Shown: positions 17,188-55,814, counted from the stretch's first letter. The stretch is 64,000 bases of DNA from an uncultured bacterium (GCA_963695335.1 OY968764.1:1302685-1366684), one strand, 5' to 3'. Numbers and translations are program-made. The notes: generated by a model from the letters alone, not told the origin.

Positions 17188-17279
17188 CCCTACTTCGCCA
17201 AGGCTACGAAGGGCTAACCGCGCCATACTCCGCCCTTCTTTCTTACGGGCACCCGACCGCAGCGCTAGCGTAGGTTGGG
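17188..17279. repeat. Cluster of GC-rich palindromes including a family-A variant
   Basis: ccctacttcgccaaggctacgaaggg; cccgaccgcagcgctagcgtaggttggg. Confidence 0.55.
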
Positions 17280-17288
17280 TTAAAAGTA

Positions 17289-17363
17289 TGGTAGGCGCGA
17301 GCGGAATTGAACCGCTGACCCTTGCTACGTCAAAGCAATGCTCTGCCCCTGAGCTACGCGCCT
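17289..17363 (-). tRNA. tRNA-Val(GAC)
   Basis: Cloverleaf, anticodon loop TTGACGT, CCA end. Confidence 0.95.
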
Positions 17364-34794: not shown

Positions 34795-34877
34795 AATGAG
34801 AAATCCTGTATTAATGAATTATTCATTCACCCGTACAATAGCGGATTTCCAATTTGAAAAACAACCCTTTAATATAT

Positions 34878-34906
34878 CCTCCTTCGCATAAAGCTATGGA
34901 GGCAGG
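34878..34906. repeat. Family-A-related palindrome
   Basis: cctccttcgcataaagctatggaggcagg. Confidence 0.5.
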
Positions 34907-40894: not shown

Positions 40895-41800
40895 TTATAG
40901 GCCTTTCTGCTTTGCAATAAACTGATCCACAATTTCAACCAATTTCCGAGCATCCTCATAACTTTGCTTAATCATTGCCTTATTACTTGCAAGCTCCCCA
41001 ATTACTGCCGAATACAAAGGCAAGCCAGGTGCAAAACCTGCTTTAACCGCAAAATAATCATACATCTGCATAATATCTTCCGGTCGGAAGGTGTGCATTA
41101 AACATTCTACATATTTTTTATATTCAATAAGAGCATGCAGTTCTTTACTATTCAACTTTACCTTTTTGTCATTTATCATCTTTATAAAATTCTGACAAGC
41201 CATTGCACATAGGTTATGTCTATATGAAGAGTCCATATCAATTGCACAAAAAATATTTCTCACGGAATCATAAAAAAGATTACCTCGATGGCGATCATGA
41301 TTACATACAAACGTGTCCAAAGCCACAATTTTTCTTAATGTTATATGTTTGCTCATCCACGCGAGCATATCCCGCCGAAACCCAGTTATCTCTTGCTTGA
41401 TATTCATTCTTCTATACGCACTCCATTGCGCATTCATCATTTTACCTGGTGCAACAGTATGAATTGTTGCTGGCCAATCATCATAAGGTTTTCCGGGAAA
41501 ATGTTTCCCTGCAGGAATAATATCCACGTGATGAGCAATGTTGGGATCAAATATTTCTGCAATATGTGCCGTGATAGCATCAAGAACTACACTCACAATT
41601 TTATCAAAATGATGTTTTCTCTTTTGTTTAATGACATATACTTTTCCGTAGATTTTAACAAAACTAATATGAGAATATTCCACCTCATAACTACGGATCA
41701 GTTCTACATTACGCGGTTCAACATCAAGAATATGTAATCGCGCATAACATAATTGGCTCAGTACCAATGTAACAGATAGTATCACACGATATAGTTTCAT
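40895..41800 (-). CDS. Exported atypical kinase (HipA/PI3-PI4K/Fam20-like catalytic motifs)
   Basis: YVIKQK, DTFVCNHDRHRGN, AIDMD; signal peptide. Confidence 0.7.
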   Translation of the reverse strand: MKLYRVILSVTLVLSQLCYARLHILDVEPRNVELIRSYEVEYSHISFVKIYGKVYVIKQKRKHHFDKIVSVVLDAITAHIAEIFDPNIAHHVDIIPAGKHFPGKPYDDWPATIHTVAPGKMMNAQWSAYRRMNIKQEITGFRRDMLAWMSKHITLRKIVALDTFVCNHDRHRGNLFYDSVRNIFCAIDMDSSYRHNLCAMACQNFIKMINDKKVKLNSKELHALIEYKKYVECLMHTFRPEDIMQMYDYFAVKAGFAPGLPLYSAVIGELASNKAMIKQSYEDARKLVEIVDQFIAKQKGL

Positions 41801-41807
41801 ACCATTA

Positions 41808-42713
41808 TCAATTCTTCTTAAACTTCTCTATCAATTTTCCCAGAATCTTCACCAACTCCTGAACATCCTGATAACTCTGCATAATCACTTGCCTATTGCT
41901 TGCAAGCTCCAAAGCAAGGCGCTCTGTATACAGTTCCGATCCCTCAACAAAACCTGCTTTTTGAGTGAAATAATCATACATTTCCAAAGTCTCTTGCGGG
42001 TTATGCCGATCAATCAGCATTTCTAAATATTTTTTATACTGAACAAGAATAATGATCTCTTTGCTGCTTAATTGCAATTTTCTATCATTCAACATTGCCG
42101 TAAAATTCTGACATGCAAGTGCACATAAATTATATTTAAATGCAGAATCCATATCAATAGCAGTCAATAAATCTGACTTTTTATGATAAAAAAGATTCCC
42201 TCTGTGCCGATCATGATTAGAGAAAAACGTATCATAAGCAACCATTTTTACCAATCTTGGATCTTTAGCCATCCATGGTAACATATCACGTCTAAATCCA
42301 ATACCAGCCTGTTTTATATTCATACTATTAAAACGACTGTCTTGCGCTTTAATCATCTTACCTTTAGCAACAGTATGAATTGTTGCTGGCCAATCTACAC
42401 GTGGTTTTCCAACAAAACTCTGCCCTGCAGGAATAATATCAACCATATGCGCATTAATAAAATCTTCCGCATAGTGTGCCATTATCGCATCACGTACCAC
42501 ACTCCCAATTTTACGTATGCAATCTGATTTTTTTTGTTTAACAATATATTCTTGACAATCAATTTCTACAAAACTAATGTAACAAAAACGCATTTCTAAT
42601 GTTTCAATTAATCTTACATTTTGAGGATTGGTATCAAGAATTGTTAAACGTGCGACATTACTTTGAACACATAAAAACAAAAAGATCATACTTAAAATTT
42701 TATTTACTTTCAT
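41808..42713 (-). CDS. Exported atypical kinase, tandem paralog
   Basis: YIVKQK, NHDRHRGN, AIDMD. Confidence 0.7.
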   Translation of the reverse strand: MKVNKILSMIFLFLCVQSNVARLTILDTNPQNVRLIETLEMRFCYISFVEIDCQEYIVKQKKSDCIRKIGSVVRDAIMAHYAEDFINAHMVDIIPAGQSFVGKPRVDWPATIHTVAKGKMIKAQDSRFNSMNIKQAGIGFRRDMLPWMAKDPRLVKMVAYDTFFSNHDRHRGNLFYHKKSDLLTAIDMDSAFKYNLCALACQNFTAMLNDRKLQLSSKEIIILVQYKKYLEMLIDRHNPQETLEMYDYFTQKAGFVEGSELYTERLALELASNRQVIMQSYQDVQELVKILGKLIEKFKKN

Positions 42714-47726: not shown

Positions 47727-47783
47727 CCCCAATTTCCATTTCATTCCAATCGGGGTCCTCATTGAAGGGAACTGAAAATGGGA
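47727..47783. repeat. Family-C palindromic repeat
   Basis: ccccaatttccatttcattccaatcggggtcctcattgaagggaactgaaaatggga aligns to 206-263. Confidence 0.7.
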
Positions 47784-47809
47784 TTAAACAAACGATTGAA
47801 AGAAAAATA

Positions 47810-50800
47810 ATGAAACTCACTCTCCGTTCACCATTTTTATGGATCATCGCAACAGTGCTCTCAGGATTAATGTATTTTTTTGCATTTCATCTTTTTCCTC
47901 AAACATTTCCCATCATCAATCTTTCTATCACCATGGATCTTGAACAAGCATTGGATAAAGCTGATGATATTGCTCAAGAATACAATTTCGGCCCCGCCTT
48001 CGCCGAGGCTTCAGCGGACAGGCCCTATCAATCGGCAGCAATGTTCCATACAGATAACACGGTAAAAACATTTGTTGAACTGGAAGGTGGTGGAAGAGAT
48101 GCATTTGTTGCAATGATGGATAAACAACTGTATATGCCATACACATGGAGAGTGCGTCATTTTAAAGAACATGAAAAAAATGAAACAACGTTTATATTTA
48201 CTCCTGATGGCACATTATACGGTTTTGTGGAAACATTATCAGAAAATATTTCTGGTGCACAGCTGACTGAAAATGAGGCACGTCAAATAGCAGAAAACGA
48301 TGCTGCAACATATTGGGATATTGATTTCTCTCCATACACATTAGTTGAAACATCACAAAAATTAGAAATTGGTGGACGCCTTGATCACACATTTATTTAC
48401 GAACGAAATGATGCAAAAATCCAAGAAGGTCTTTACCGTTTAAAAATAGTCGTCAGTGGTGATAAAACAACTACACTGAATCATTTTGTTAAAATCCCCG
48501 AAGCATTCACCCGCCGCTATGCAGAAATGCGATCAGCAAATAATACTATTTCATGGGCTGCAACAATTTTCATGATTTTATTATACTTTATTGGTGGTTG
48601 TTGTTTTGGCCTTTTTTATCTGAGTAAACATCGCTGGAATATCATCAAACAACCAATGAAATGGGCTGTCTTTCTTTCTACTCTTTCTGTTCTGACATCA
48701 ATCAACCAATTACCATTTTTATGGATGCATTATCACACCGCATTATCATCATATGGTTTTTTGATGCAAATATTGCTCAATCTTCTTATCAGCTTCCTTG
48801 GATATGTCGTTATTCTAACACTCATCATTATGGCAGCTGAAGGGCTTACACGCCGTGCCTTTGGCAACCATCCACAACTCTGGTTATTAACACAACCTGA
48901 TATAAAAACATCTTATGCAATTTTTGGCAGAACATACGCTGGATATCTTCTTGTTGGTTTTAATTGCGCATTTGTTATCGGATTTTATTTCTTTTCTACT
49001 CGTTATTGGGGTTGGTGGTCACCATCAGAAATGTTGTTTGATCCCAATATATTAGCAACCTATGCTCCATGGTTTTCACCCATTGCGAAATCGCTTAATG
49101 CTGGTTTTATGGAAGAGTGTCTTTTCCGTGCAATTCCACTCGCGGGAGCTGCACTATTAGGTAACCGTTTTGGAAAAAGAAATTGGTGGATAGGCGCTGC
49201 ATTTATTTTGCAAGCAATTATCTTTGGCGCAGCTCATGCAAACTATCCAATGCAACCATCATACGCACGTCTTATTGAATTACTTGTGCCATCATTTATT
49301 TGGGGTGCAATCTATTTACGATTTGGTTTAGTTACAAATATTATCGCTCATTTTGTGTATGACGTTGTGTGGTTTTCTATACCTATTTTTGTATCGCAAA
49401 CACAATACGCTTACGCATATAAAATAACAATTATTTTTGTTACTCTGTTGCCACTTCTTTACGTGCTATATGCACGTATCAGAAAAGGTACATGGACAGA
49501 AATTTCTACTGATGCACTCAATGCAGCATGGTCACCAACCACAACTATCAAAGAAAAAATAGAACCTATCATAAGAAAAACAGAATCATATAATCTTACA
49601 AACACACTAAAAAAAATAATCATTGGACTTGGTGCTGCAGGACTCATTGCATGGATATACAACACACCATTCACGCATGATGGTGTTACTATTACATTGA
49701 ATAGAGATGATGCAATTGCAACGGCGAATGCATATTTAGAAGAAAAAAACTTTACGCCTGACACGTCCGACTCCGCCAAGGCTTCCGACTTTGCCAAGGC
49801 TTCGTCGGACAGGTCGTCGGACAGGCATTGGAAAACATTACCACTCATATTTGCAGACTATAAACTCATACCGCAGATTGCTTTGCAACACAAATTTATC
49901 TGGCAAGAAGGCACAAAAGAATTGTATCACCAACTATTAGGTAACTATTTGCATCCAGCACATTGGACAATCCGTTATGCTCAATTTGATACTGATATTA
50001 TTCAACGAGCAGAAGAATACAAAGTATTGCTCTACAATAATAAAATATGGCAATATTATCATCAACTGCCTGAATCTACTGCAGGAGCAGAACTCTCACA
50101 AGAGACAGCACGCACAATTGCTTTTGCAGCCATCCAAGAAGAACTCAATATCAATCCAAAAGAGTTAACGGAAATTTCTGCAAGAGCATCACAACTGCCT
50201 CATCGCAAAGATTGGTTATTTGTTTTTTCAGATCCAAATATTTATCCATTACCGATTGGCCAAGCACGCATTTCTGTTACTATCAGTGGTGATCAAATAA
50301 CCAATGTTCTTCGTGCAATTCATGTACCAGAAGAATGGGAACGTGCTGAACAACATAAACAAAACATGCTCAGTATTGTTCTTATTGTACTAGCACTATT
50401 ATTTATGTTTCTTATTGTGTTTGCATTCTATAAAGCATCCAAACATAACAAAACGTTTATATTTTCAAAACGATTGTTCTTTATTTTATGCGGTGTTGTA
50501 TCTGTAATATGCGTTATTGATTTGATTAACTCTTGGCAAACTGTTGTAGGTGGATTTAACACAAGCTTACCACTCACCAATCAGCTCTTTCAGACAATCA
50601 CAGGCCTCATCATCAGCTCTCTTATGAAAATAGTTGGTTATGCAGCAGTAATAAGCTATGTCATGTCACACAAAAGATCTCATCAATTACCACATACATG
50701 GCTTACCGCAATACTTGGGATATCTTCTGGACTTTTTGTATCAGGAATATATGCAACAGTACAACTGCTTGTGCCATCTCACATGCCACTTTGGCCACAT

Positions 50801-51298
50801 TATGAATCACTGAGTTATACAATGCCATTACTTGCTAGCTTAACTCATGCTATTTCATACTATACACAACTAACTATTGCATGTTCATTACTCTTTATGC
50901 TCATTGATACAGCAACCCGTCCTTCGATAGCTTCCGACTTCGCCAAGGCTTCGTCGGACACGGCAGGACGAGCGGAAGAGAAAAATTGGTTACTTTTGAC
51001 AGGATTAATGACAGTGTATGGCATGCTCGCCATTCATTTGCCATCTCTAGATATGATTGGAATATGGATTATTGCTGGCGCACTGTTTGGTTGGACATTA
51101 CTTGCAATGTATCGTTATGTCATACGATATGATTATGCACTTATTTCTGTAGCAACCAGCGGCCCTACACTATTATATATTGCACAACAAGGAATCTTTA
51201 ATGCATATCCAGGTGCGTGTATCTATGCATGTATAAATAGTATTGCTGTTATATGTGTTGCTTCTGTGTGGTATTGGTACGTTAGTAAACAAAATTAA
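47810..51298 (+). CDS. Large CPBP (Abi/CAAX) family intramembrane metalloprotease with duplicated extracytoplasmic domain
   Basis: EECLFR, FGAAH, IIAHFVYD motifs; many TM helices; contains in-frame repeat insertions. Confidence 0.88.
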   Translation: MKLTLRSPFLWIIATVLSGLMYFFAFHLFPQTFPIINLSITMDLEQALDKADDIAQEYNFGPAFAEASADRPYQSAAMFHTDNTVKTFVELEGGGRDAFVAMMDKQLYMPYTWRVRHFKEHEKNETTFIFTPDGTLYGFVETLSENISGAQLTENEARQIAENDAATYWDIDFSPYTLVETSQKLEIGGRLDHTFIYERNDAKIQEGLYRLKIVVSGDKTTTLNHFVKIPEAFTRRYAEMRSANNTISWAATIFMILLYFIGGCCFGLFYLSKHRWNIIKQPMKWAVFLSTLSVLTSINQLPFLWMHYHTALSSYGFLMQILLNLLISFLGYVVILTLIIMAAEGLTRRAFGNHPQLWLLTQPDIKTSYAIFGRTYAGYLLVGFNCAFVIGFYFFSTRYWGWWSPSEMLFDPNILATYAPWFSPIAKSLNAGFMEECLFRAIPLAGAALLGNRFGKRNWWIGAAFILQAIIFGAAHANYPMQPSYARLIELLVPSFIWGAIYLRFGLVTNIIAHFVYDVVWFSIPIFVSQTQYAYAYKITIIFVTLLPLLYVLYARIRKGTWTEISTDALNAAWSPTTTIKEKIEPIIRKTESYNLTNTLKKIIIGLGAAGLIAWIYNTPFTHDGVTITLNRDDAIATANAYLEEKNFTPDTSDSAKASDFAKASSDRSSDRHWKTLPLIFADYKLIPQIALQHKFIWQEGTKELYHQLLGNYLHPAHWTIRYAQFDTDIIQRAEEYKVLLYNNKIWQYYHQLPESTAGAELSQETARTIAFAAIQEELNINPKELTEISARASQLPHRKDWLFVFSDPNIYPLPIGQARISVTISGDQITNVLRAIHVPEEWERAEQHKQNMLSIVLIVLALLFMFLIVFAFYKASKHNKTFIFSKRLFFILCGVVSVICVIDLINSWQTVVGGFNTSLPLTNQLFQTITGLIISSLMKIVGYAAVISYVMSHKRSHQLPHTWLTAILGISSGLFVSGIYATVQLLVPSHMPLWPHYESLSYTMPLLASLTHAISYYTQLTIACSLLFMLIDTATRPSIASDFAKASSDTAGRAEEKNWLLLTGLMTVYGMLAIHLPSLDMIGIWIIAGALFGWTLLAMYRYVIRYDYALISVATSGPTLLYIAQQGIFNAYPGACIYACINSIAVICVASVWYWYVSKQN
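47993..48022 (+). repeat. Family-A 30-bp in-frame palindromic element (PAFAEASADR)
   Basis: cccgccttcgccgaggcttcagcggacagg; GC-rich island in an AT-rich gene. Confidence 0.8.
49766..49825 (+). repeat. Two nested family-A 30-bp elements, in frame
   Basis: tccgactccgccaaggct[tccgactttgccaaggcttcgtcggacagg]tcgtcggacagg. Confidence 0.9.
50920..50975 (+). repeat. Family-A 30-bp element (50933-50962) nested in a family-B repeat, in frame
   Basis: tccttcgatagct[tccgacttcgccaaggcttcgtcggacacg]gcaggacgagcgg. Confidence 0.85.
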
Positions 51299-51522
51299 TT
51301 AACGTGAGTTCGATTTAAGCACAATACTATACTTCTTAATGAATTATTCCTCTGCGCTCGCCCTGAACTTGTTGAAGGGTATCTTTGAGCGCACTCTTAA
51401 TAACAATAAAAAAACAACAAAGTTTCTATTCTTTAGTAATGATTAAAAAGAAAAATATTTTTTAATAAAAAAAGAAACCGCGCTCAAAGATATCCTTCAA
51501 CAAGTTCAGCGATTATGATCAA

Positions 51523-51528
51523 AGTCAA
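51523..51528 (-). promoter_or_regulatory. -35 box (TTGACT) of the circle-junction promoter; pairs with -10 TATGAT at 52674-52679
   Basis: Junction reads TTGACT-17 nt-TATGAT. Confidence 0.8.
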
Positions 51529-52490
51529 GTAGAATAGGCATTTTTATTAGGTGCCCACTTTCTATTTTCAGTAAGAAGAACATTAGCAAGTATAATAAAC
51601 TTGCGCATTACAGCAATTAGGGCAATCTTAGATGGTTTTCCTTCTTCACGTAATCGCTCATAAAATTTCTTAAAATCTGGATTATGTTGAACAGCTGAAA
51701 GTGTAGGCATATACAGCATTTTTCGTGGTAAGGATCTACCTTCTCTAATGATAGATTTTTTCTTATAATTACCACTTTCATTGGTGTATGGAGCTACGCC
51801 TAATAAGGCTGCAACTTGCTTATTTCCAATACTTCCTAATTCAGAAAAAAAAGCAATTAACGTTGCTGATGTTCCTTTTCCAGCACCAGGAATTGATGTG
51901 ATAATATTTTGCTTATGTTTCCAGTCATCATCATTATCAATTAATTGTTCTATTTCTTTTTCCAATTCCTTAACTTGTTCATCCATAAAATCAATATGTT
52001 GTTGAATTTTGTCTTTACAAAATTCAACTTGTGGATGAGCCAATCGTGTTTTTTCTCGACTGATCATTCCCGTCAAATCACTTTTCCTTCTTATTAAAGC
52101 TTTCAATAATTCTTCATTCTCTTTTGGCACTTTAATGCGTGTTTCCTCTGATAATTCTTTTTGTTGTGCAAACAAAGCAATCATAGATGCATCAATCTTG
52201 TCTGTTTTTGCTTTTGCTCCATCTGATGCGATAAACGACTTAATTCGTTTCGGCTCAATTAGCCATACAAAATATCCAGCATTACTTAATGTACGAATCA
52301 ATAATTTTTCGTATCCACCAGATGATTCACATACAACGCGAACAACATTGTACTCAGAAAATACATTAAGTATTTTATTGAGACCAGCGGCGCTATTTGG
52401 CGTTTTAAAATATTGATTCAATGGACGTAAAAAAACATCCAAATTATCTTTTGAAATATCGACACCAACAAATATTTCTGTTAGCTTCAT
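51525..52490 (-). CDS. IS110-family recombinase/transposase (DEDD RuvC-like plus Tnp domain)
   Basis: VGVDISKD, CESSGGY, KTDKIDA, SIPGAG, GVAPYTNESG. Confidence 0.95.
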   Translation of the reverse strand: MKLTEIFVGVDISKDNLDVFLRPLNQYFKTPNSAAGLNKILNVFSEYNVVRVVCESSGGYEKLLIRTLSNAGYFVWLIEPKRIKSFIASDGAKAKTDKIDASMIALFAQQKELSEETRIKVPKENEELLKALIRRKSDLTGMISREKTRLAHPQVEFCKDKIQQHIDFMDEQVKELEKEIEQLIDNDDDWKHKQNIITSIPGAGKGTSATLIAFFSELGSIGNKQVAALLGVAPYTNESGNYKKKSIIREGRSLPRKMLYMPTLSAVQHNPDFKKFYERLREEGKPSKIALIAVMRKFIILANVLLTENRKWAPNKNAYST

Positions 52491-52668
52491 AGTAATTCTT
52501 CCTCATAATACGAGCCTTGCGCTCAAGCGATTATTCGAATCTTCTACAAATCTGGTTGATAGCTCTTTAGCTGAAAACGGTTCTTGTAACCTAGGACGAG
52601 CACAAGACGCTATCAACCTTTTTTTATAGCCTAGTTTCCTAAACCTAAAAAACTCAATAATCTACATG
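52491..52668 (-). ncRNA. Predicted bridge RNA (5' stem-loop, target-binding loop, donor-binding loop)
   Basis: Left target guide 52593-52601, right target guide 52571-52575, left donor guide 52526-52534 and right donor guide 52502-52507 match target and donor; ends approximate. Confidence 0.85.
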
Positions 52669-52736
52669 CTTTTATCATATGAGGACGAGCGCGTAAGATT
52701 AAATGATTTTTTAATTTTTCTTAGATCGAACTCACG

Positions 52737-53903
52737 TTAATTATTAAGCAATCTATTAAAAATATTTTCTAATTCTTTAGTCGATTGCTTAATTTCAAAC
52801 TCATCTTCAACTTTTTTTCTTCCCGCCAACTCTACAGATTTCCATATTTCTGGATGACTGATAATATAATCAATTGTATGTGTTAATTCCGTTACGCTTT
52901 CTTCTGCCACTAAAAATCCAGATATTCCATCATCAATCAACTCAGATGTCCCAGCATGCCACGTGCTCACAGCAATAAGTCCCATGGCCATTGCTTCTTT
53001 TAACGCATTGGCAATACCTTCTTCATTTCCATCACTCGATTTTTTTGACGGCAACATAAAAATATGAGATTTATCTAAAATAGAAGCAACTTCTTCATGG
53101 CTTTTCCACCCACAAAATGTAACATTATCCTGAAGATGTAATTGATATACTAATAACTCCAAATACGTTCGTTCTTCACCATCACCAACAATAAAGTAAT
53201 GCACTTTAGGATATTTTCTTACAATTTCAGCAAAAGCTTTTATTGCGTCATCTATACCTTTTTTCTGGACAAGTCTACAAGTAGAAACAAAATTTATGTA
53301 ATCATCGCTTGGTTTATGACGTAATCTAAATGGAAATTGTGAACTATCGATAGCAGAATGATGTACTTCTATTTTTGATTTTTTACAACCAAGCGCAATA
53401 AGTTTTTTTTTAAAATAATCACACACAGGTAAAAAAAGATCTGCTTGTTTTAATACTTTCTTATATCTTGCTGGATTCTGCTGAAGATGTGCTGTAATAT
53501 CAGATCCTCTAATGCAAACAGCGACTTTTCTTTGCTTAAGCCATTCTGATAGACGTGGCATTTCAAAAATTTTTTGACCTAAATACCCAAATTGACAAAA
53601 AACAATATCGCATTGAGGTAATTTTGCAGGAAGATTTTTATACATAATACATTTCAATAAACCGTATTTTTCAATATTAGGATGCATACCAACTAATGAA
53701 TCTTTATGAAATGAAAAAATGGAAACATCATGTCCCCGCTCTATAAGTTCTGTCATTATATTTAAAATAAAAATTTGTGAAGGAGAAGGAAAATGCCCTA
53801 ATATAAAAAGTATGCGCAATGGTTTTTCAGCACAACTTATCGAATGGAATAAACAGATACATAATACAACACTAACTTTATATAGCAACATTCTTTTTTT
53901 CAT
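52737..53903 (-). CDS. GT4 glycosyltransferase (WcaL/AmsK-like) with signal peptide
   Basis: RGSDIT, RLVQKKG, EEGIANALKEAMAMG. Confidence 0.9.
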   Translation of the reverse strand: MKKRMLLYKVSVVLCICLFHSISCAEKPLRILFILGHFPSPSQIFILNIMTELIERGHDVSIFSFHKDSLVGMHPNIEKYGLLKCIMYKNLPAKLPQCDIVFCQFGYLGQKIFEMPRLSEWLKQRKVAVCIRGSDITAHLQQNPARYKKVLKQADLFLPVCDYFKKKLIALGCKKSKIEVHHSAIDSSQFPFRLRHKPSDDYINFVSTCRLVQKKGIDDAIKAFAEIVRKYPKVHYFIVGDGEERTYLELLVYQLHLQDNVTFCGWKSHEEVASILDKSHIFMLPSKKSSDGNEEGIANALKEAMAMGLIAVSTWHAGTSELIDDGISGFLVAEESVTELTHTIDYIISHPEIWKSVELAGRKKVEDEFEIKQSTKELENIFNRLLNN

Positions 53904-53919
53904 AAACAAATAACCATAT

Positions 53920-54843
53920 TTAAAATTGATAATCAACAATTGAATCTAATAACGCAATCAATTCATAGGCACTTTTATAACTTTTTACAATCATTAATTC
54001 ATAGTTTAATAATTTTTTTTCTATTCTTGCATCATACAAAAAACTACCCATACTAAATCCCGCTTGTTTTGCAAAATAACGTAATTGCTGTATTAATGCA
54101 TTTGGCTTATGCTTACGTAATAAAAATTTTAAAGTGTTTCTCATATGTCTTAATGCGTTAACTTCATCTTGGTTAAAAACAATCTTTTCTTCTTGAATCA
54201 TATACAAAAGTTTTTTGCATGCTAACTTGCATAAATCCTTATCAAAAGTATCATCCATATCAATTGCACAGAATCTATCTGTAATAGGATCATAACAAAG
54301 ATTTCCACAATGCCGATCTGAATTTCCTATAAACAGATCTAAAGCTACAATTTCAGGCAGTTGCGGATGCCACGTCATGTGTTCAATAATTGCTTTTGTT
54401 AATCCCTTTTCTTTAAATGTCTGTGCTTGCGCCCAAAACTGTCTAAGTCTTAATGCATTATATCTACATTTAGGTTGCTTTCTTACGGTGTCTCCTTTTG
54501 CAATCGTATGTAATGTTGCTGGCCAAAACTGCTGTATTTTCCCAGAAAACTGTTGTTTTGCTCCAATAATTTCAATCTCATGAGCAATGCCGCGCAATGT
54601 CTTTGCAACATATGCCGCTAAAGCATCACGTACAACCGACAACTGTTTTTTATAATCTTTTTTTTGTTTTATTAAATAAATTCTTCCATCAATCAATATA
54701 TAACTAATAAAACAGTTCTTGGTTTCAATTGTATTAACAATAGAAATATCTTCTCTTGCTTGATCAATTGATCTTGAAAATTTAGAAAATATAGGAAAAA
54801 TTATTATAAACGACAAAGCAACCAGCACATGTATCACGCGCAT
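53920..54843 (-). CDS. Exported atypical kinase (same family as 40895-42713)
   Basis: YLIKQK, DLFIGNSDRHCGN, AIDMD. Confidence 0.7.
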   Translation of the reverse strand: MRVIHVLVALSFIIIFPIFSKFSRSIDQAREDISIVNTIETKNCFISYILIDGRIYLIKQKKDYKKQLSVVRDALAAYVAKTLRGIAHEIEIIGAKQQFSGKIQQFWPATLHTIAKGDTVRKQPKCRYNALRLRQFWAQAQTFKEKGLTKAIIEHMTWHPQLPEIVALDLFIGNSDRHCGNLCYDPITDRFCAIDMDDTFDKDLCKLACKKLLYMIQEEKIVFNQDEVNALRHMRNTLKFLLRKHKPNALIQQLRYFAKQAGFSMGSFLYDARIEKKLLNYELMIVKSYKSAYELIALLDSIVDYQF

Positions 54844-54887
54844 TGCTACTACCTTTTTTCATTTTTTTACATTAATAAATAACAATA

Positions 54888-55814
54888 CTACTTCTTTTTT
54901 GGTCTTTTAATAATATCATTCAAAATTGATATCAATTTATATGTACTATGATAACTTTGAACAATAATATCTTTGTGTAATTCTATTTTTTTTGTAACAC
55001 CATGATTCACTTTTGAATCATCATCAACATATCCCGCTTGTTGAGCACATTGATAAAGGTGAGCTATAATCTGATCTGGATTATAATTTTGCAATAATAA
55101 TTCGAGAGTTTTTTTCATTTTTTTAAGAGCTTTTCTCTCTTTTTTACTGAATTTTTTATGATCTGATCTCATTTTTTTTAAATTTTGATATGCAAATTCA
55201 GGTAAATTACGTCTATAAATATTATCCATATCAATTGCGCAGAACTTATCTGTTTGTTCATCATAAAAAAGATTTCCACGATGACGATCACTGTTACAAA
55301 TAAACAGATCCAAAGCTATAATAATAGGGAGCTGTTTATGCCATGTCATTTGAGAAATAATATTTTCATCCAACCATCTATTAAGAACTTTTTCATCAAG
55401 ATTATTAAGATTTCTCTGTTGCAAAGATAATTGAAAATATTTATGCCCTTCCCCCAAGCTCCGGACTGTTTTCCCTGGAGCAATTGACAGTAGAGTTGCA
55501 GGACAATGATTATATATCTTTCCAGGAACATCATCATCTGGAGCAATAATCTCAACAGAATGAGCTACTCCGAGTTCTTTTGCAACATATGCCGCCAATG
55601 CATCTCGAATAACTGATATTACTGTTTTTTGACACTCTTTTTTTTGTTTAACAATATATCTCACTGCATCCATAACTATATAACTAATAAAAGCATTGGG
55701 TGATTCAAAACCACCTTCTAAAAATACTGTCCGATTCTCTGAAATATGAGGAGATGAAAACATTGCTGCATTACTTAATAAAACAATCACATAGAACATT
55801 ACTCGTGTTACCAT
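54888..55814 (-). CDS. Exported atypical kinase (same family)
   Basis: YIVKQK, DLFICNSDRHRGN, AIDMD. Confidence 0.7.
   Translation of the reverse strand: MVTRVMFYVIVLLSNAAMFSSPHISENRTVFLEGGFESPNAFISYIVMDAVRYIVKQKKECQKTVISVIRDALAAYVAKELGVAHSVEIIAPDDDVPGKIYNHCPATLLSIAPGKTVRSLGEGHKYFQLSLQQRNLNNLDEKVLNRWLDENIISQMTWHKQLPIIIALDLFICNSDRHRGNLFYDEQTDKFCAIDMDNIYRRNLPEFAYQNLKKMRSDHKKFSKKERKALKKMKKTLELLLQNYNPDQIIAHLYQCAQQAGYVDDDSKVNHGVTKKIELHKDIIVQSYHSTYKLISILNDIIKRPKKK

Follow-up and report, generated by a model that had tools for sequence, protein, structure and literature searches.

Short palindromic repeats that lie in frame within unrelated protein-coding genes are known from Rickettsia. In the portions of two papers that treat these Rickettsia palindromic elements (RPE), the repeats are predicted to be translated (PMC10969869, PMC3733652). 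RPE of the RPE-1 type are given there as about 105-150 nt long (PMC10969869), and the short RPE-4/6 are assigned to the CGTC family of repeats (PMC3733652). How very short palindromes gain entry into genes is still an open question. Here we describe a palindrome of 30-31 nt, family A, which is present in four copies within one gene of a 64,000-nt stretch of DNA from an uncultured bacterium (GCA_963695335.1 OY968764.1:1302685-1366684; the whole stretch is called the window, and positions are counted from its first letter). The same element is dispersed through the genome, where it is associated with a group of small GIY-YIG nuclease genes, clade A; a second repeat, family B, accompanies a second group, clade B.

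Two other described systems bear on this element. The GTAG and CGTC repetitive extragenic palindromic (REP) sequences, as characterized in the relevant portions of Di Nocera et al. (2013), are tagged hairpins of 20-40 nt that show compensatory stem changes, form inverted dimers, occur within genes and insert into palindromes (PMC3733652). The same portions propose mobilization of GTAG REPs in trans by Y1/RAYT proteins and report that no dedicated transposase was found for the CGTC repeats (PMC3733652). In the second system, as set out in the corresponding parts of Chenal et al. (2025), the 94-aa GIY-YIG protein SsnA needs its hairpin in single-stranded form for binding, accepts just one of the two strands, and makes its cut a few bases upstream; residues Y6, Y17, and E64 are required for cutting (PMC11893778). 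In those parts, 2% of the NTS repeats lie inside genes, and domestication of an NTS-ssnA-NTS arrangement is raised merely as a hypothesis (PMC11893778).

Family A can be compared with each of these. Like RPE, it is a dispersed palindrome that keeps the reading frame of the unrelated genes in which it lies, its host is again an intracellular bacterium, and empty orthologs exist. Unlike RPE-1, it is only 30-31 nt long, apparently has another sequence, nests within its own copies, and occurs at tRNA 3' ends; it probably stands apart from RPE-4/6 as well, which are CGTC-family repeats (a CGTC-type SRM pattern had no match). Family A has in common with the REP families a tagged hairpin whose stem changes are compensatory, the formation of inverted dimers, the presence of some copies within genes, and nesting in palindromes. 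It differs from GTAG/CGTC REPs and REPIN/RAYT in having neither a terminal GTAG nor a CGTC tag, in combining a 5-6 bp stem with an internal loop and an inner hairpin, and in that no RAYT partner was seen at the one Y1 flank inspected. The likeness to Ssn/NTS is that of a single-domain GIY-YIG gene of less than 100 aa with an oriented, tagged hairpin of about 30 nt and matching catalytic residues. Here the differences are that the hairpins of clade A lie upstream only, starting at tRNA ends, and that 36 of 75 family-A copies are intragenic, versus the 2% described for NTS. The SRM pattern had no match in the genome, in 118 A hairpins or in 50 clade-A flanks; the positive control was weak, with a single match among 12 clade-C flanks. 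The phenomenon of the in-frame palindrome is already known; new here are the pairings of family A with clade A and of family B with clade B, and a unit starting from the terminal CCA of tRNA and tmRNA genes. No report of the family-A element or of clade A turned up in literature searches, which covered openly accessible journals; Rfam assigned no family to the element at four loci, and NCBIfam gave nothing useful. Small dispersed repeats (SDR) of cyanobacteria, reportedly described by Elhai and colleagues in 2008, are said to be mobile repeats of 21-27 nt that nest in their own copies; they are reportedly confined to cyanobacteria, with other sequences, a proposed RNA intermediate, and no enzyme named.

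The host gene is an open reading frame (ORF) of 1178 aa (47762..51298, plus strand), in which the ATG at 47810 corresponds to the start in orthologs. It encodes a membrane protein with a CPBP/Rce1-like domain; PF02517 is missed when the whole protein is scanned and is matched with E 9.4e-13 on the segment 49040-49420, which bears out the CPBP identity given in the original prediction. Direct reading of the window confirmed the four copies where that prediction had placed them, all in one shared frame. Copy 1 (47993..48022, plus strand) reads PAFAEASADR. An outer copy (49766..49825, plus strand) is split into 49766-49783 and 49814-49825 by an inner copy (49784..49813, plus strand), and copy 4 (50933..50963, plus strand) splits a family-B hairpin (50918..50975, plus strand) into 50918-50932 and 50964-50975. 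As predicted, both nested copies follow a GCT, one in the outer copy and one in the family-B repeat. The predicted length of exactly 30 bp does not fit copy 4, a 31-nt form whose family-B host is one base shorter than its equivalent in a related genome, G005; contigs of other organisms match copy 4, and their matches end at 50933 and 50963. Two intergenic relatives were also confirmed, one at 17188..17217 (plus strand), the distal hairpin downstream of a tRNA-Val gene (17289-17363, minus strand) and absent in G005, and the other, somewhat degenerate and read directly, at 34877..34906 (plus strand).

The source genome (G000) is a single contig of 1,366,684 bases, with 35.7% G+C and a completeness of 94%; its placement in Babeliales is inferred because the best homologs of one gene come mostly from Babeliales/Dependentiae records. 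Matches to the host gene are present in 25 of 41 related genomes, and 20 loci were aligned, that is, 19 orthologs versus G000. In this alignment the insert-free orthologs that had been expected were found. Site 1 is empty in all 19; the net gain there is 24 nt (8 codons) rather than 30, and therefore 6 nt were lost at or after insertion. At site 2, the gene is 20 codons longer than in the nearest relative, G005. G008 is 10 codons longer and has a single family-A copy with the same stem, and G002 carries the residues SDK, possibly the remnant of an insert. Because of its distribution over the quick-tree topology (G008,(G002,(G000,G005))), the outer copy either goes back to an early insertion with a later loss or entered the site on two occasions. 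At site 3, the family-B repeat of G005 lacks the inner copy, and both are missing from the other 18 orthologs, which fixes the order of insertion. Further independent inserts are present elsewhere in the gene in G008 (in reverse orientation), G002, and G011. Thus, on the two points that could have told against the original prediction, the orthologs do not conserve these peptides and the motif is repeated elsewhere in the genome.

The same pattern extends across the genome, in which 36 coding sites in 31 ORFs were compared with orthologs in G005 (5 of the 31 genes have no ortholog there, and one has a remote match only). The ends of copies are imprecise: seven single copies correspond to clean gaps of 8-12 codons in G005. 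Three sites are shared with G005 or decayed there, at one site 10 codons are replaced with no change in length, and the remaining sites are composites or too variable for alignment. Copies at tRNA and transfer-messenger RNA (tmRNA) ends likewise come and go between related genomes. Family-A copies are gained and lost between related genomes.

Genome-wide repetition of the motif amounts to about 75-120 copies, with 0-1 in controls. A 16-nt core with up to 2 mismatches has 53 matches in the genome versus none in one Markov control; structure-aware filters retain 75-77 copies, and a looser, generalized hairpin pattern finds 118 versus 1 and 0 in two controls. A degenerate exact core is present in 27 of the 41 related genomes (a reversed control gave 1 match), and a longer pattern finds at least 118 loci in metagenomes and 100 in viral collections. 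On one metagenome contig (L294, 151-243), three family-A copies lie head-to-tail with a period of 33 nt.

The family-A unit consists of a variable stem of 5-6 bp, a 3x3 internal loop, a small inner hairpin, and an unpaired tail of 4-5 nt. On the coding strand, the order is a 5-nt arm beginning with YCC, the 16-nt core with the inner hairpin, the complementary arm, and the tail, mostly CAGG or CAAG. Among 215 distinct metagenome and viral loci, found with a pattern that left the pairing of the outer pair free, the outer pair covaries, with T-A at 114 loci, C-G at 82, and another combination at 19; for the inner pair, C-G predominates (136 loci), followed by T-A (70) and other combinations (9). 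G-T wobble mismatches number 56 for the opposite strand versus 13 for the coding strand, and therefore the strand that folds is probably the one complementary to the strand coding for FAKAS. On this folded strand, the tail reads CTTG or CCTG in 164 of the 215 loci, although the pattern itself fixed two of the four bases. No fixed target-site duplication accompanies the copies, only a bias of at most 1-2 nt. The class of miniature inverted-repeat transposable elements, taken as having terminal inverted repeats of 15-30 bp and a fixed target-site duplication, was considered and rejected for this 30-nt unit, which has an asymmetric tail and no constant duplication.

The proposal that the element targets hairpins holds in part. 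Whether the host hairpin belongs to family A or B, nesting takes place at one of two recurrent positions, following GCT or preceding CAAG, and further examples at the GCT position are present in the rest of the genome and in metagenomes. By a rough rule, only 30 of 111 copies in three genomes are nested; most copies lie in ordinary sequence, with tRNA 3' ends a main site.

Within genes, the copies show a bias. ORFs of at least 150 aa cover 82% of the genome yet hold 36 of the 75 copies, and 25 of these 36 are in one sense frame, reading xxFAKASxxR. A target preference, including one for CC, was rejected as the source of this frame bias, since six models predict 8.4-11.5 of 36 (8.4 from stop-free chance, 11.5 from the best target model). 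Selection on the host protein, favoring small hydrophilic peptides, is inferred to be the likelier main cause. Copies persist in genes only in frame, mostly in the one sense frame that gives small hydrophilic coil peptides. Peptides of about 10 residues in predicted coils agree with the earlier proposal that the element adds 10-aa peptides to proteins; the net gain, at 8-12 codons and 8 at site 1, does not match it exactly. In an AlphaFold model of the host protein (mean pLDDT 61, modest quality), all three sites lie in coil with pLDDT <50. The ORF is still open and the CPBP motifs are retained despite the inserts, which may be translated within a functional protein; the peptides in this gene are most likely tolerated passengers. 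Among the sequencing runs listed as containing the sequence, none was of RNA. Across the 1.37-Mb genome, at least 31 proteins gain loop peptides from the element.

The genome contains three stand-alone GIY-YIG genes, each beside these repeats, one of them belonging to clade B and two to clade A, a group of single-domain genes of about 80 aa (PF01541, E 4.6e-16). Among solved structures, clade A comes closest to a UPF0213 protein (E 3e-5) and an SLX1 homolog (E 7e-4), and Tyr5, Tyr17, and Glu63 of a clade-A protein of G000 match by position the SsnA residues Y6, Y17, and E64. Using profiles built from a tree of 56 proteins, 91 small GIY-YIG domains in 90 loci of the 41 genomes were assigned to clade A (50), clade B (29), or clade C (12), counts that leave out five weak or fragmentary matches and those of UvrC length. 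By their motifs, clades A, B, and C may resemble the CDD groups SLX1-like, UPF0213, and Ssn, respectively. Clade A branches apart in the tree from clade C, the putatively "Ssn-like" one.

The pairing of hairpin and nuclease gene is clade-specific. Of 49 clade-A genes, 33 have an A hairpin in the 300 nt upstream, compared with 0/29 for clade B, 1/12 for clade C, and a background of 39 among 1194 ORFs of G000; downstream of clade-A genes it is present in only 4 of 49. An untuned core pattern, searched within 500 nt, gives 17/34, 4/18, and 0/4 for clades A, B, and C, and an upstream hairpin accompanies 47 of 79 homolog loci from several phyla, including Planctomycetes-Verrucomicrobia-Chlamydiae (PVC), Alphaproteobacteria, and Candidate Phyla Radiation (CPR) records. 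Family-B repeats, for their part, bracket 20 of 28 clade-B genes and none of 48 clade-A genes. At least four exact copies of the element are present in 18 of 23 genomes with clade A versus 1 of 18 without it, figures that kinship inflates; outside the genome's own family, the numbers are 4/7 versus 0/9. The link of clade A to family A is an association only. Two further repeat families and two further GIY-YIG clades in one bacterial order define candidate enzyme-substrate pairs, and clades A and B may possibly provide new single-strand specificities. At clade-B loci (G000:C1:565584-565799 and 28 others), inverted family-B ends form a two-ended cassette, with A-like hairpins nested in the ends.

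Upstream of clade-A genes, the usual layout is that of a two-hairpin unit: the CCA end of a tRNA or tmRNA gene, a first hairpin that borrows the CCA as its arm, an AT-rich spacer, an inverted second hairpin, and the gene. Both hairpins are family-A hairpins with a longer inner loop. In all 25 units that matched the pattern, out of 50 flanks, a dinucleotide of the first hairpin has its complement next to the second hairpin, and five different pairs are represented. The start of the unit follows 18 of 35 tRNA/tmRNA genes in G000 and 7 of 32 in G005. At four loci (L158, L164, L172, and L185), the CCA at the start of the unit follows a conserved stretch in which ARAGORN recognized neither tRNA nor tmRNA and which is possibly another structured RNA. 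A tandem duplication of the unit upstream of the nuclease gene is present at L023 (1150-1470) and also at L129, L160, L162, L167, and L175, and at L185 the entire unit plus its gene is present twice.

We consider it somewhat probable that the inserts represent a non-autonomous, REP/RPE-like element spread via single-strand cuts by the clade-A GIY-YIG nuclease, followed by host repair. The nuclease would recognize the single-stranded hairpin on the strand complementary to that coding for FAKAS and, by analogy with SsnA and its hairpin, would cut 5' of the stem at a distance of a few bases. The repair machinery of the host, by template switching or short-homology joining, would then copy or join the piece elsewhere, leaving ends that are imprecise by a few bases. 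The original prediction had left the mobilizing enzyme unknown and suggested a search for linked RAYT/TnpA(Y1) or GIY-YIG genes. GIY-YIG genes are linked and one small clade is now a specific candidate; no RAYT-like arrangement was seen at the one Y1 flank inspected, and mobilization by that clade is a proposal.

Several observations weigh against this proposal. By itself a nuclease cuts DNA without inserting it, and for clade A the tie to the element is one of association; even for SsnA, the portions of Chenal et al. (2025) bearing on the question demonstrate cutting and an effect on transformation, not mobility (PMC11893778). The generalized hairpin pattern was composed after the clade-A flanks had been inspected, and the compared genomes are kin, some of them incomplete. 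G007 has 13 copies and no clade-A gene was found there; G012 and G040 have a clade-A gene and no exact copy. The folding energy of the element is no better than that of shuffled sequences (z +0.1 to -1.6). Some "empty" sites are possibly secondary losses, as the SDK of G002 at site 2 and the copies shared with or decayed in G005 at three sites suggest, and an excision joint was not seen in the reads of four low-share sequencing runs, where coverage was sparse. Lastly, since hairpins are nearly confined to the upstream side of clade-A genes, unlike the ends of a two-ended cassette, hairpins and genes could simply collect at tRNA ends.

This one-sided arrangement leads to the main rival, which we think rather unlikely: host recombination, replication slippage (gene conversion between hairpins, template switching) or a different enzyme would spread the element, with the GIY-YIG genes as passengers that share tRNA ends, or the tRNA-linked hairpins would be RNA signals such as a terminator, a processing site, or a regulator of the nuclease gene. 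Many tRNA-end units indeed have no nuclease gene (G000 has 18 occupied ends and two clade-A genes), composite B::A units with the same junctions are found repeatedly and may move as a whole, and the net gains are imprecise, including the 10-codon replacement that leaves the length unchanged. Mere co-tenancy at tRNA ends is hard to square with the clade-specific pairing, in which A hairpins go with clade A and family B flanks clade-B but not clade-A genes, or with the rarity of the element in genomes that lack clade A. Furthermore, the wobble asymmetry of solo copies favors the strand opposite the tRNA transcript, and the tRNA-end copies appear and disappear between relatives.

A more specific mechanism, which we put forward as a tentative and doubtful one, retains the nuclease. 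Each small GIY-YIG clade other than Ssn would be a site-specific single-strand nuclease that mobilizes a minimal hairpin of its own; the unit of clade A would home to tRNA CCA ends and shed a closed 30-nt "dumbbell" that integrates at a YC junction of 1-2 nt chosen by pairing. In this dumbbell, the inner hairpin would cap one end of the stem and the 4-5 nt tail the opposite end, giving CTTG/TTTA-type loops at both ends on the folded strand. The choice of junction by base pairing is proposed because the base after the tail, usually C, covaries with the outer pair: it is T in 26 of 64 loci after T-A and in 3 of 53 after C-G. This covariation is significant in a broad sample of 132 non-nested metagenome and viral loci but was not reproduced in 37 Babeliales copies (4/13 versus 5/21), and taxon structure could be its source. 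If true, the dumbbell would be among the smallest mobile elements, and an enzyme would be named for RPE-type protein insertions.

It is improbable that a Y1/HUH transposase of the RAYT or IS200 type, or the IS110 transposase encoded next to the host gene, mobilizes the element in trans. A hairpin with a short unpaired tag recalls REP anatomy, and the genome has three IS200-type Y1 transposase genes (G000:C1:369218, 574578, and 1166633). These three matches score identically, as recent copies of an IS200 element would and as they probably are, the element lacks the GTAG tag, and the single Y1 flank inspected has no bracketing A hairpins, just an insert in the coding sequence of the adjacent gene, about 300 nt away. 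A reverse transcriptase gene (PF00078) was not found in G000, which is 94% complete. Finally, it is most improbable that the nested pair at 49766-49825 stems from a single copy through local tandem duplication of 18 nt and of 12 nt, even though it can be parsed as left-left-right-right, because GCT nesting recurs with differing inner and outer stems and in family-B hosts, where duplication cannot produce nesting and of which G005 has an empty example; with such heterologous nested pairs, duplication is largely refuted as a general explanation.

Apart from the inserts, the host protein is conserved in Babeliales, with a length of about 1120 aa, and in it the CPBP/Rce1 domain is combined with two soluble alpha/beta regions that weakly resemble YcdB/YcdC and YpeB domains; a fold search with the model matched nothing at E up to 0.001. 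The IS110-family transposase gene beside it (51525-52490, minus strand) lies near an inverted pair of family-B repeats (51363-51509), and 30-nt inverted repeats (51296-51325 and 52714-52743) enclose both (window 51296-52743). Elsewhere in the window, two tandem pairs of paralogous genes, each encoding about 300 aa, lie at 41032-42565 and 53920-55814 and are related to one another.

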